A DNA stretch of 5,594 nt, taken from IMG/VR virus record IMGVR_UViG_2663762627_000005, positions 1-5,594 of that record; one strand, 5' to 3'. Within the stretch, counting starts at the first letter, position 1, and every line of letters begins with the position of its first letter. Shown one piece after another: positions 1,974-5,594 of the stretch. The notes below the pieces were generated by a model that was given only the letters and a program-made list of their open reading frames with translations, searched no databases and had not been told where the DNA came from. A program made the translations under genes and the position numbers. This DNA is from a virus (Duplodnaviria > Heunggongvirae > Uroviricota > Caudoviricetes).

Positions 1974-2240
1974 ATGCACACCGCTTTTTCTTCCCCGTCT
2001 TCTGCCCCTGCCGCGCCGCTGATGCCGGTCTCTGACGCCGTTCATGAGCGTTTTATTCGTCTGCCTGAAGTGATGCATTTATGCGGCCTGTCTCGTTCGA
2101 CCATTTATGACCTCATCAGCCGGGAAGCTTTCCCGAAGCAAATCTCCCTCGGCGGTAAAAACGTGGCGTGGGCGCAGTCTGAAATCACCGCATGGATGGC
2201 GGATCGCATTGCCGAACGTAACCGGGGTTATGACGCATGA
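1974..2240 (+). CDS. vis: AlpA/Vis-family small DNA-binding regulator (88 aa), MerR-like HTH
   Basis: ATG at 1974 with GAGG 7 nt upstream. The protein contains [50 protein letters not shown], characteristic of prophage AlpA/Vis/excisionase-like regulators. Same size (88 aa) and position as P4 vis (orf88) as I recall. Confidence 0.85.
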
Positions 2241-2788
2241 TGATGACCGTTCAGCAAACAGCCCCTTTTTCTGGCTTGCTTCTTTTCATCGTTTCCAGGT
2301 ATAGTTTTCCCGCTGCCGCAAAATCGGCAGCCGGGCGTAGGAACCCGAGTTACTTATTGGCGACACCAGACGCGCCATGCGTCTTTTTTTACGTCGTTGC
2401 TCAGGCACACCCATTTTCCGGGCTGTGGTGCTTATACCTTAGCCCCTGTCAGATAATGGTGGTCCGGGCGGGGCAGCCTTCGGGCTGGCCGGTTTCCAAT
2501 AAGGCCGGTATTCCTACCCCCGTTCGGGTCACCACCCATGAGCGTAGGAACTCCGGTGGTGGCAATTACCGCTACTTATTGGAGGTTGCCGCTATGGCTA
2601 CGACCCTCACCCTGCCACACCCGCAGTTTGTCTTTGTGTTTGCCGCCGTTCGTCGCGCAGACCGTAAACCCCGTATCTGTATGCTTCGCACCGTTGCCGG
2701 TGATGAACACGCTGCACGTCTTTCCCTCGTTCGCGATTATGTCCTCTCGTTCGCTGGCCGTCTGCCGGTTGCGGAGGTGTGCGCATGA
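2237..2788 (+). CDS. eta: Eta-like long ORF (183 aa) whose terminal part is kil; starts with three consecutive ATG codons and reads through seqA, the CI-like RNA and seqC
   Basis: About 119 codons stay open across a region that is clearly an RNA regulatory locus, in frame with kil. The start overlaps the vis stop (ATGA) and is followed by ATGATG. This matches the P4 description of eta as a nested ORF beginning upstream of PLE with three possible start codons. Whether it is translated is untested. Confidence 0.45.
2276..2305 (+). promoter_or_regulatory. Sigma70-type promoter, PLE-like: -35 TTGCTT (2276-2281), 18-bp spacer, -10 TATAGT (2300-2305)
   Basis: Good hexamers with correct spacing. 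Placed just upstream of seqA and the CI-like RNA and just inside the eta ORF, as expected for the constitutive early promoter of a P4-type left operon. Confidence 0.55.
2335..2361 (+). promoter_or_regulatory. seqA-like target of the immunity RNA (GTAGGAA ... CTTATTGG)
   Basis: GCGTAGGAACccgagttaCTTATTGG is complementary in two blocks to the seqB segment of the downstream RNA (CCAATAAG ... TTCCTAC at 2496-2517). Confidence 0.65.
2368..2390 (+). terminator. Intrinsic-terminator-like hairpin (AGACGC / gccat loop / GCGTCT) followed by a T7 tract
   Basis: 6-bp stem at 2368-2373 and 2379-2384 with a T run at 2384-2390, immediately downstream of seqA in the leader. Orientation-specific: there is no U-tract on the other strand. 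Confidence 0.4.
2455..2537 (+). ncRNA. cI: CI-like immunity RNA (about 80 nt) carrying seqB; boundaries approximate
   Basis: A terminal helix can form between GGUGGUCCGGGCGGGG (2458-2473) and CCCCCGUUCGGGUCACCACC (2517-2536). Internal hairpin CAGCC-UUCG-GGCUG (2474-2488). The seqB segment CCAATAAGgccggtaTTCCTAC (2496-2517) is complementary to both seqA and seqC. P4 CI RNA is a processed leader RNA of about 79 nt. Confidence 0.6.
2541..2585 (+). promoter_or_regulatory. seqC-like target of the immunity RNA, overlapping the kil Shine-Dalgarno
   Basis: AGCGTAGGAAC (2541-2551) and CTTATTGG (2575-2582) repeat the seqA blocks. The GGAGG SD of kil is at 2581-2585, so CI/seqC pairing would occlude the kil ribosome-binding site. 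Confidence 0.6.
2594..2788 (+). CDS. kil: Kil-like small protein (64 aa), first translated gene downstream of the PLE-like promoter
   Basis: ATG at 2594 with GGAGG 8 nt upstream. 64 codons ([64 protein letters not shown]). P4 kil is 65 aa at the same position. Function inferred from position only. Confidence 0.6.
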
Positions 2789-3343: not shown

Positions 3344-5440
3344 ATGAAAATGAACGTAACGGAAACCGTAAAACAGGCGTGCGGTCACTGGCCGCGTATT
3401 CTCCCGGCGCTGGGTGTGAAGGTGATTAAAAACCGGCATCAGGCCTGTCCGGTGTGCGGCGGCTCTGACCGCTTTCGCTTTGACGATAAAGAGGGGCGCG
3501 GGACGTGGTACTGCAATCAGTGCGGCGCGGGTGACGGGCTTAAGCTGGTCGAAAAGGTGTTCGGTGTAAATCCGTCTGAGGCCGCCCGGAAGGTGAACGC
3601 CGTCACCGGTAATCTGTCGCCGGTTGCCCCGGAAGCGATTGCGGCCGCAGAAGCCGGAACCGATGCCGACCTCCAGGCGGCGGCCGCGCTGGCCGTCAGG
3701 CTCATGGAGAAAACCCGCCCGGCCACCGGCAACGCCTACCTCACCCGCAAGGGTTTCCCCGACCGGGAATGTCTGATGCTCACAGCCATACATAAAACCG
3801 GCGGCGTGACGTTCCGCGCCGGTGATGTGGTTGTCCCGCTGTATGACGATACCGGGGCGCTGGTTAACGTTCAGCTTATTAATGCTGATGGTCTCAAACG
3901 CACCCTGAAAGGCGGTCAGGTCAAAGGGGCATGTCATATCATCGAGGGGCAGAAACAGCCCGGAAAACGCCTGTGGATTGCGGAGGGTTATGCGACCGCG
4001 CTCACCGTGCATCAACTGACCGGCGAAACCGTCATGGTGGCGCTGTCCTCCGTGAACCTCCTTTCTCTGGCGAGCCTTGCCCGTCAGAAGTCCCCGGCCT
4101 GTCAGATTGTCCTCGCCGCCGACCGTGACCTTAACGGCGACGGCCAGAACAAAGCCGCAGCGGCCGCAGGAGCCTGCGAGGGCATTGTTGCCCTGCCACC
4201 GGTGTTCGGTGACTGGAATGATGCGTTTATAGAAAAAGGTGAGGAAGCCACGCGGAAAGCCATTCATAACGCCATCCGGCCACCGGCACAAAGTCCGTTC
4301 GACACCATGAGCGAGGCGGAATTTACCGCCATGAGCGCCAGCGACAAGGCGATGCGGGTGCATGAGCATTACGGCGAAGCGCTGGCTGTGGACGCGAACG
4401 GCCAGCTTCTGTCCCGCTATGAAAACGGCATCTGGAAAAATATCCCTGCCGCCACTTTTTCACGAAATGTTGCTGATTTATTCCGGCGCGTGCGTGCCCC
4501 GTTCTCGTCGGGGAGAATCACCTCAGTGGTGGAGACGCTGAAGCTGATTATTCCTCAGCAGGAGGCACCGGCGCGCCGTCTGATTGGTTTTCGCAACGGG
4601 GTACTTGATACCCAAAGCGGCCTGTTCAGCCCGCACAGTAAATCACACTGGCTGCGCACGCTGTGCGACGTGGATTTTACCCCGCCGGTGGAAGGGGAAA
4701 CGCTGGAGACCCACGCGCCAAACTTCTGGCGCTGGCTCGACCGTGCCGCCGGTGGCAGACCGGAAAAACGCGACGTGATACTTGCCGCGCTGTTTATGGT
4801 GCTGGCGAACCGCTACGACTGGCAGCTCTTTCTCGAAGTCACCGGTCCCGGCGGAAGCGGTAAAAGTATTCTCGCCGAAATCGCGACCCTGCTCGCCGGA
4901 GAGGATAACGCCACGTCAGCCGATATCGACACACTGGAAGACCCGCGCAAGCGCGCATCCCTGACTGGTTTCTCGCTAATCCGTCTGCCTGACCAGGAAA
5001 AATGGAGCGGTGACGGGGCAGGACTCAAAGCCATCACCGGCGGCGATGCGGTCTCAGTTGACCCGAAATACCAGAACCCGTACTCAACACATATTCCGGC
5101 GGTGATTCTGGCCGTGAACAATAACCCGATGCGCTTCACTGACCGCAGCGGCGGTGTGTCACGCCGCCGGGTGATTATTCATTTCCCGGAGCAGATTGCC
5201 CCGGAGGAACGCGACCCGCAGCTCAGGGATAAAATTGCGCGCGAGCTGGCCGTTATCGTGCGCCAGCTTATGCAGAAATTCAGCGACCCGATGGCAGCGC
5301 GCACTCTGCTCCAGTCGCAGCAGAACTCCGATGAAGCGCTCAGCATCAAGCGTGATGCTGACCCGACGTTTGATTTTTGTGGCTATCTGGAAATGCTGCC
5401 GCAGACCAACGGGATGTTGGTAATGGTGCCAACTTACTGA
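3344..5440 (+). CDS. alpha: P4 alpha-type primase-helicase, C-terminus apparently replaced by IS1-derived codons (native codons end near 5418)
   Basis: Start ATG 3344 (MKMNVTETV...) with GAGGGAG upstream; the track's earlier ATG 3293 lies inside the preceding gene. Zinc-ribbon CPVCGG...WYCNQCG, primase EGYATA motif, TOPRIM-like AADRDLNGDG, and Walker A GPGGSGKS (about 4844-4867). The last 7 codons and the stop (5420-5440) lie inside the IS1 terminal inverted repeat. 699 aa versus about 777 aa for P4 alpha. Confidence 0.88.
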   Translation: MKMNVTETVKQACGHWPRILPALGVKVIKNRHQACPVCGGSDRFRFDDKEGRGTWYCNQCGAGDGLKLVEKVFGVNPSEAARKVNAVTGNLSPVAPEAIAAAEAGTDADLQAAAALAVRLMEKTRPATGNAYLTRKGFPDRECLMLTAIHKTGGVTFRAGDVVVPLYDDTGALVNVQLINADGLKRTLKGGQVKGACHIIEGQKQPGKRLWIAEGYATALTVHQLTGETVMVALSSVNLLSLASLARQKSPACQIVLAADRDLNGDGQNKAAAAAGACEGIVALPPVFGDWNDAFIEKGEEATRKAIHNAIRPPAQSPFDTMSEAEFTAMSASDKAMRVHEHYGEALAVDANGQLLSRYENGIWKNIPAATFSRNVADLFRRVRAPFSSGRITSVVETLKLIIPQQEAPARRLIGFRNGVLDTQSGLFSPHSKSHWLRTLCDVDFTPPVEGETLETHAPNFWRWLDRAAGGRPEKRDVILAALFMVLANRYDWQLFLEVTGPGGSGKSILAEIATLLAGEDNATSADIDTLEDPRKRASLTGFSLIRLPDQEKWSGDGAGLKAITGGDAVSVDPKYQNPYSTHIPAVILAVNNNPMRFTDRSGGVSRRRVIIHFPEQIAPEERDPQLRDKIARELAVIVRQLMQKFSDPMAARTLLQSQQNSDEALSIKRDADPTFDFCGYLEMLPQTNGMLVMVPTY

Positions 5441-5594
5441 TTTAGTGTATCATGGTGTTTTTGAGGTGCTCCCGTGGCTTCCATCTCCATCAGTTGTCCC
5501 TCCTGCTCAGCTACTGAAGGCGTGGTGCGTAACGGTAAAAGTACTGCCGGACATCAGCGCTATCTCTGCTCTCACTGCCGTAAAACATGGCAAC
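5419..5594 (+). mobile_element. IS1 insertion sequence, left end (terminal inverted repeat GGTAATGGTGCCAACTTACTGAT) and start of insA; continues beyond the window
   Basis: 5419-5441 matches the IS1 terminal inverted repeat apart from a few variant positions, followed by the characteristic TTTAGTGTAT...GGTGTTTTTGAGGTGCTCC leader and insA. Confidence 0.9.
5474..5594 (+). CDS. insA: IS1 InsA (transposition repressor / N-terminal transposase part), 5' portion only
   Basis: GTG start at 5474. Translation (V/M)[39 protein letters not shown] matches the InsA N-terminus (zinc-finger CPSC...CSHC). ORF runs off the right edge. Confidence 0.9.

Follow-up and report, generated by a model that had tools for sequence, protein, structure and literature searches.

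A hairpin in the immunity leader of a defective P4-like satellite prophage is probably a leaky intrinsic terminator

We found that a short hairpin followed by a run of T residues, at positions 2368–2390 of a P4-type satellite prophage, is very probably the leaky intrinsic (Rho-independent) terminator of the immunity leader, orthologous to the t1 site of P4 and to the terminator of the small RNA IsrK. We put the probability of this reading at about 90%. The element is one that is already known, and it is an ordinary part of the immunity region of P4-like satellite prophages, where the constitutive promoter precedes it and the immunity RNA follows. What has been found is a further instance of a published control element, in a defective copy of a P4-like prophage that is very common in E. 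coli, and the finding is of little consequence.

The window, by which we mean the whole 5,594-nt stretch of DNA that was analyzed, carries a P4-type satellite prophage with a psu fragment, minus-strand delta-like and sid-like genes, orf88/vis and eta/kil-like genes, small ORFs and an alpha-type primase. Across the immunity region the window is 78% identical to P4 in a collinear alignment, and from ~101 to ~5400 it has exact 40-mers at a constant offset in common with a prophage of E. coli PSS-16. Of 5426 complete E. coli genomes that were searched, 2786 have leaders related to that of the window; in O157:H7 strains the locus shows 81% identity. The hairpin lies between PLE and the CI RNA gene of the P4-type left operon, and psu, delta, sid-like, vis, eta and alpha surround it. 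The features immediately around the leader are as follows.

1974–2240, plus strand: orf88/Vis (AlpA-type) gene, an 88-aa ORF that aligns with P4 ORF88; RefSeq has a helix-turn-helix regulator at the identical locus.
2237–2788, plus strand: eta/kil-like frame, a 183-aa ORF annotated 'Icd-like'; the P4 frame is collinear and RefSeq has a CDS at the identical locus.
2276–2305, plus strand: PLE-like, putatively constitutive promoter, with -35 TTGCTT at 2276–2281, an 18-nt spacer and -10 TATAGT at 2300–2305.

The last gene upstream of the leader is orf88/vis; its stop and the start of the eta-like frame overlap in ATGA. The eta-like frame extends over all of the leader, the CI RNA and the hairpin, where its codons read PDAPCVFFY; only transcripts with a start further upstream (PLL-type) allow its translation. 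The -10 box TATAGT aligns with the P4 box annotated as 'consensus -10 sequence' (TATAGT, P4 record 697–702), and the -35 box was below the threshold of our simple promoter scan. Judged from the first base of the full-length isrK match described below, the start from this promoter would lie at ~2312, 7 nt past the -10 box. A start at ~2312 gives a predicted leader RNA of ~78 nt.

The hairpin sequence at 2368–2384 (plus strand) reads AGACGCG-CCA-TGCGTCT and runs directly into the T-run. ViennaRNA folded this sequence into a 6-bp stem with a 5-nt loop (A2368-U2384, G2369-C2383, A2370-U2382, C2371-G2381, G2372-C2380 and C2373-G2379) at -8.4 kcal/mol, with z = -1.8 against shuffles. A simple scan read the same stem as 7 pairs, 4 of them G-C, closed by a 3-nt loop. 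The U-tract is the T7 at 2384–2390 (plus strand), and its first T doubles as the last stem pair. A GC-rich stem-loop followed directly by a U-tract, as in an intrinsic terminator, was thus found at 2368–2390. With so short a stem (-8.4 kcal/mol, z = -1.8) the predicted efficiency of termination could be low. The first-pass annotation had described a 6-bp stem and seven T residues here, about 55 nt past a PLE-like start and right after seqA. Fold, scan and sequence all agree with this description and with the position given; the hairpin begins 56 nt after the predicted start at 2312, and the second block of seqA (2353–2360) ends 8 nt 5' of the stem.

Sequences that resemble terminators are easily found, and we compared their number with that in shuffled DNA. 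A loose scan returned 12 terminator-like sites in the window and 6.3 ± 2.1 in shuffles. A loose match therefore says little. Under a strict criterion (a perfect stem of at least 6 bp with at least 4 G-C pairs and an adjoining run of at least 6 T) the site at 2368–2390 was the sole one in the window on both strands, and dinucleotide shuffles gave 0.033 sites per window.

We then consider the RNA to which the hairpin belongs. All Rfam families were scanned over the window, with the curated gathering scores as cut-offs. Three families matched above their cut-offs, and the c4-a1b1, isrK and C4 matches come in the same order in P4 and in phiKO2. The matches and the leader parts are these.

2299–2351, plus strand: match to c4-a1b1 (RF03163), 50.1 bits, above its cut-off.
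2312–2389, plus strand: match to isrK (RF01394), 75.9 bits against a gathering score of 50, E = 1.7e-15, covering model positions 1–77 of 77.
2312–2390, plus strand: predicted short leader RNA of ~78 nt (IsrK-like, 'seqA RNA'), made up of hairpin 1, hairpin 2, a linker and the terminator.
2312–2331, plus strand: hairpin 1 (a1-type target), stem 2312–2318 with 2325–2331 and loop CAAAAU; part of the c4-a1b1 match (RF03163, 50.1 bits).
2384–2390, plus strand: U-tract T7, the expected release site, with a predicted 3' end at ~2388–2391; the T-run columns are invariant or nearly so across the family.
2452–2539, plus strand: match to C4 (RF01695), the CI / C4-type immunity RNA, 83.4 bits against a gathering score of 45, covering model positions 1–87 of 87.

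The hairpin at 2368–2390 coincides exactly with the 3'-terminal stem and U-tail of the isrK model. The minimum-energy fold of 2312–2391 has exactly three hairpins with the U-tail after the last, as in isrK. Matches to let-7 and snoRNA families elsewhere in the window were far under their cut-offs and were set aside as chance.

IsrK was mapped in Salmonella as a 77-nt RNA (PMC2330248). It has a Rho-independent terminator that a subset of transcripts reads through, and it has been called a structural homologue of P4 seqA (PMC4825925), with which it is likewise equated elsewhere (PMC3632133). The literature thus equates IsrK with P4 seqA and C4 with P4 CI RNA (PMC3632133, PMC4825925, PMC10111431).

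We considered whether the hairpin might not terminate transcription at all and instead be a 3' stabiliser or a processing landmark, with the short leader RNA made by cleavage and trimming of long transcripts. The CI/C4 RNAs do arise by processing of the same transcript (PMC4825925), and an outer helix, which is described below and is possible only on long transcripts, is conserved. However, in virtually all family members the stem runs straight into a perfect stretch of 6–7 U, a pattern that marks release and not an exonuclease block, and IsrK has been reported to end at a Rho-independent terminator, read-through of which was measured (PMC4825925). We regard such a purely processing role as very unlikely.

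To ask how general the putative terminator is, leaders were fished from viral and genome collections by the pattern of seqA hairpin 1 only, which avoids selection on the terminator. A scan of genome contigs with the pattern GCAAAATCNNNNGCCGGG returned mostly chance matches from unrelated phyla and a few real ones (Erwinia and Aeromonas among them). The scan of viral contigs was far more productive; matches were filtered by the complementary 5' arm. The scannable set consisted of 69 distinct leaders for which the flanking sequence was long enough and a C4-like core followed at no more than 250 nt. Every one of these 69 has, between its seqA and the C4-like core, a T-run of five or more. A perfect GC-rich hairpin abutted the T-run in 66 of the 69, and the remaining three had longer, imperfect stems. 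The stem sequences themselves vary widely (GACGCG, ACACGCG, ACCGCG, CCACGC and others). A hairpin and T-run also follow the a1b1 hairpins in P7 and in Pseudomonas phage CF3a. On these sequences, the predicted terminator is a constant part of C4-type immunity modules.

Alignment of 66 leaders with MAFFT and RNAalifold recovered hairpins 1 and 2 and missed the terminator, which was misaligned by indels. We therefore relied on a covariance model built from a gapless seed, to which 85 leaders (81 distinct) were aligned; this alignment is fitted to the structure. Among the 81 distinct leaders all 6 terminator pairs were changed on both sides, with 95% of cells paired, as were 5 of the 7 pairs of hairpin 1; slid controls for the whole structure had 31–45% of cells paired. 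A set of 27 P4-like leaders was also aligned without gaps and without fitting to structure; in this alignment the pair 58/72 was G-C in 20 leaders and C-G in 7, and 94% of cells were paired. Thus both the fitted and the unfitted alignment indicate that for the 2368–2384 stem it is the structure rather than the sequence that relatives have kept. Conservation and covariation settle the question of whether the hairpin and T-run at 2368–2390 are real: they are.

These data also bear on whether the hairpin belongs to the leader. It lies 128 nt past the orf88 stop and inside the eta-like ORF, so it might be the terminator of the upstream vis/orf88 unit or a by-product of constraint on the eta protein, and loose terminator-like matches are common enough in the window that chance might be invoked. 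However, the hairpin is downstream of the PLE promoter, and in N15-like, P1-like and lambdoid phages and in Pseudomonas phages, which have different upstream genes, it is always found after the seqA/a1b1 hairpins. The compensatory changes preserve pairing and not codons, and the strict criterion leaves an expectation of only 0.033 sites. An upstream terminator, a coding by-product and chance are together the least probable of the explanations that we weighed, and we hold them to be extremely improbable.

The closest described counterpart of the site is in P4 itself. There the hairpin is TGACGCGCCACGCGTCTTTTTTT (the predicted t1, at ~8636–8614 of NC_001609) and in the window it is AGACGCGCCATGCGTCTTTTTTT; 21 of the 23 bases are identical, leaving two differences. 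As in the window, the P4 terminator has seqA on its 5' side and cI on its 3' side, and its distance from the PLE start is ~56 nt; promoter, seqA, CI RNA and eta frame around it match as well. The spacer between terminator and CI RNA differs (~60 nt in the window and ~105 nt in P4), and the window copy, unlike P4, is in a defective prophage. The stem of N15-like phiKO2 differs by the compensatory exchange of a G:C pair for C:G, and the phiKO2 record annotates it as a putative terminator. The first-pass annotation had held the terminator of P4 immunity to be Rho-dependent, so that an intrinsic structure in the window would be an added or alternative layer. The presence of the same hairpin at the same position in P4 refutes this. 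Its suggestion of a processing or termination site that defines leader fragments agrees, as regards termination and a short leader RNA, with the isrK match, with the family-wide hairpin and T-run and with the mapped 77-nt IsrK.

We take the window hairpin at 2368–2390 to be the counterpart of the P4 site known as t1. Briani, Ghisotti and Deho are said to have described t1 in 2000 as a typical Rho-independent terminator between PLE and cI. In that work t1 reportedly needs both CI RNA and seqA to be efficient, and reportedly does so in vitro too, where host factors are absent. The site is further said to be used for CI autoregulation; deletion of t1 reportedly raises the CI level, and lysogeny without t1 is reportedly possible. 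The suggestion of the first-pass annotation that seqA pairing with the immunity RNA could modulate the hairpin agrees with this account of P4. Literature searches turned up no secondary account of t1.

Other relatives share the arrangement and differ in what it controls. IsrK of Gifsy-1 (RF01394; Padalon-Brauch 2008; Hershko-Shalev 2016) resembles the window leader in having three hairpins and the same type of terminator. Gifsy-1 also resembles the window in arrangement, with a short RNA, a read-through isoform and a C4-like RNA (STnc1160) downstream. However, the downstream genes in Gifsy-1 are orf45-anrP (antirepressor), whereas in P4-like elements they are replication genes. Moreover, the short RNA of Gifsy-1 activates translation of the long isoform in trans, whereas the output described for P4-like elements is transcription termination. 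We know of no trans role of the short leader RNA in P4. The immI locus of P1/P7 (a1/b1, the c4 antisense RNA and icd-ant) and the antirepressor loci of N15/phiKO2 have a1b1 hairpins, a hairpin with a T-run, a C4 RNA and a second target set, as in the window. Their stem sequences differ from that of the window, and the T-runs of P7 are shorter. Regulation in P1/P7 is described as translational repression of icd with polarity and is not known to work by termination at the upstream hairpin.

The leader and the CI-like RNA are complementary over two blocks, and a second set of complementary blocks follows the CI RNA.

2331–2360, plus strand: seqA, two CI-complementary blocks; block 1 at 2331–2348 includes hairpin 2, and block 2, CUUAUUGG, is at 2353–2360.
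2543–2582, plus strand: seqC region, two CI-complementary blocks; block 1 at 2543–2557 (-17.9 kcal/mol, RNAduplex) and block 2, CUUAUUGG, at 2575–2582.

By RNAduplex, seqA block 1 pairs with 2505–2522 of the CI-like RNA at -21.1 kcal/mol. Block 2 of seqA is the exact 8-nt complement of the CI loop CCAAUAAG (2496–2503), and P4 carries UUCACAGG and CCUGUGAA at the same two places. The CUUAUUGG/CCAAUAAG pair looks like a second, immunity-specific recognition block. The sequence CUUAUUGG is present twice, after seqA (2353–2360) and after seqC (2575–2582), each copy complementing the variable CI loop CCAAUAAG; the P4 pair is different (UUCACAGG with CCUGUGAA). Between the two seqC blocks the scan also listed a hairpin, CGGTGGTGGCAATTACCG, at 2554–2571, which is followed by CTACTTATTG, a poor U-tract. 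By its position this hairpin could match t4, the atypical CI-dependent terminator of P4.

A simple promoter scan found no promoter-like site between the terminator and the CI RNA (2391–2452). Synthesis of the CI RNA therefore needs read-through, and for this the terminator must be leaky. Such leakiness fits the short stem.

From these observations we propose the following course of events. Transcription would start at the constitutive PLE-like promoter at ~2312, and the nascent RNA would fold the two seqA hairpins. When polymerase is at the U-tract (2384–2390) the hairpin at 2368–2384 would form, and part of the complexes would release the ~78-nt leader RNA. The remaining complexes would read through into the CI/C4-type RNA (2452–2539), which would be excised from the transcript. 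CI would then pair with seqA on new transcripts and termination at the hairpin would rise, as is reported for P4, so that CI would limit its own synthesis. In this sense the site at 2368–2390 would be both CI-dependent and autoregulatory. Transcripts that come from the late promoter further upstream would be translated across the site in the eta frame, and this should stop the hairpin from forming. Such suppression of the terminator by eta translation would be in line with the finding that Eta translation prevents termination (Forti 1999 as summarised in PMC10111431).

How CI might act on the hairpin was addressed by equilibrium folding. The probability of the terminator stem was at least 0.97 with seqA free or blocked, and no CI-dependent change in the stem was seen in these folds. 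We rejected a thermodynamic antiterminator, as the stem stays at 0.97 or above either way and no competing structure lies within 1.6 kcal/mol of the minimum-energy fold, and these folds give no support to a classical thermodynamic attenuator. Any effect of CI would need to be kinetic or act by another route.

One kinetic route is an attenuator in which an alternative hairpin, UGGCG at 2358–2362 with CGCCA at 2373–2377, forms first and delays the terminator. CI bound to seqA block 2 (2353–2360), which the 5' arm of the alternative hairpin overlaps, would sequester that arm, and CI would be an anti-antiterminator. The alternative pairing is possible in the window, and a hairpin of 4–6 bp can nearly always be drawn in the family; among 54 distinct members all but one have 4 bp or more of it, and its mean length is 4.5 bp against 3.76 ± 0.10 with the loop shuffled and 3.23 ± 0.10 with the upstream part shuffled. 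There are also some co-changes at the level of classes (GGCG/CGCC, AGCGC/GCGCT and GGAGC/GCTCT), and comparable alternative hairpins are found in P7 and CF3a. However, when upstream and terminator parts were swapped across classes 81% of the combinations still reached at least 4 bp (mean 4.28 against 4.5). Since swaps do nearly as well as the real pairs, the signal mostly reflects a shared GC-rich composition. In the gapless P4-like alignment the 4-bp core is invariant and the pairs on either side of it are kept no better than in shuffled sequence, and at equilibrium the alternative hairpin loses to the terminator (probability at least 0.97). We do not accept the alternative hairpin as a proven element, because its lead over the swapped combinations is not clear and no covariation is seen in P4-like leaders. 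A kinetic attenuator of this kind is a doubtful proposal, and it would refine the mechanism of the leaky terminator and not contradict it.

We also found a further helix around the leaky terminator. This outer helix pairs 6–8 nt just 5' of the hairpin with 6–8 nt just 3' of the U-tract and encloses the whole terminator. Its strands in the window are these.

2359–2364, plus strand: X5, GGCGAC, 5' strand of the candidate outer helix, overlapping the end of seqA block 2.
2393–2398, plus strand: X3, GUCGUU, 3' strand of the candidate outer helix, present only in read-through transcripts.

In the fitted alignment of 81 leaders 8 of 8 outer-helix pairs were changed on both sides, and 83% of cells were paired compared with 31–45% in slid controls. 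Within P4-like leaders, in the unfitted alignment, 81% of cells were paired and the helix hardly varies. In the window it is weak, with 6 bp including 2 G.U pairs, and its probability in equilibrium folds is ~0.06 or less. Its strands in relatives are as follows.

P4-type leaders: GCGACAU with GUGUCGC.
A family member: GCACAU with AUGUGC.
A family member: GCGCAU with AUGCGU (with G.U).
A family member: GCUGAC with GUCAGC.
Family member L048: GCGCCGAC with GUCGGUGC.
Family member L169: GCGCCAAC with GUUGGUGC.
P7, ~645–705 of the compared sequence: CGGACA with UGUCCG.
Pseudomonas phage CF3a, ~640–700 of the compared sequence: CAGGC with GCCUG.

The outer helix was seen in all the C4-type modules examined (P4-like, N15-like, lambdoid, P1/P7 and Pseudomonas), and the P1/P7 and N15/phiKO2 loci resemble the window in this too. 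We found no description of it in the papers that we read.

We tentatively suggest, as an idea that is less likely to be right than wrong, that a conserved three-way RNA switch, to our knowledge undescribed, is built around the terminator, and that X5 would have three partners in it. The arrangement recurs in every C4-type module that we examined, among them those of P4, P1/P7, N15-like and Pseudomonas phages. X5 could pair with the CI RNA, as it overlaps seqA block 2. A pairing of X5 with the terminator top and loop would be the kinetic antiterminator. After read-through X5 could pair with X3, and the resulting outer helix would bury the U-tract. If true, the switch would be a physical mechanism for the enhancement of intrinsic termination by an antisense RNA, and the outer helix may bear on how an antisense RNA raises intrinsic termination without protein factors. 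The switch would also mark read-through transcripts, for example for CI processing or as stable longer leader species. A different pairing, of seqA block 1 with the U-tract and the following ACGUC, appeared in one fold and was rejected as specific to the window; leaders with another block 1 (L139, for example) keep the downstream sequence.

Two family members depart from the common pattern. L216 (86–162) keeps the outer helix (CGCACA with UGUGCG) and has no terminator hairpin between the strands, and L116 (365–455) has a hairpin without a U-tract. These may be natural 'terminator-less' variants.

The RefSeq record has a single CDS at 2237–2788, for a 'host cell division inhibitor Icd-like protein', over the leader, terminator, CI RNA and seqC. 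It has no ncRNA features there, though three Rfam families match above their cut-offs. The present analysis can be of use for annotation, as the predicted 78-nt leader RNA and the terminator are absent from that record.

The alpha primase-helicase gene is broken by an IS1 at ~5405–5594; the frame stops at 5440, and the intact PSS-16 homologue continues. With IS1 in its primase gene, replication of this satellite copy should be impossible. At the left end, bases 1–64 did not align to the PSS-16 P4-like element; the alignment covers 65–130, within the PSS-16 psu gene. The IS1 insertion and the unaligned or truncated left end suggest a decayed, cryptic prophage. In such a defective copy the immunity module may be under relaxed selection, and its sequence is itself intact.
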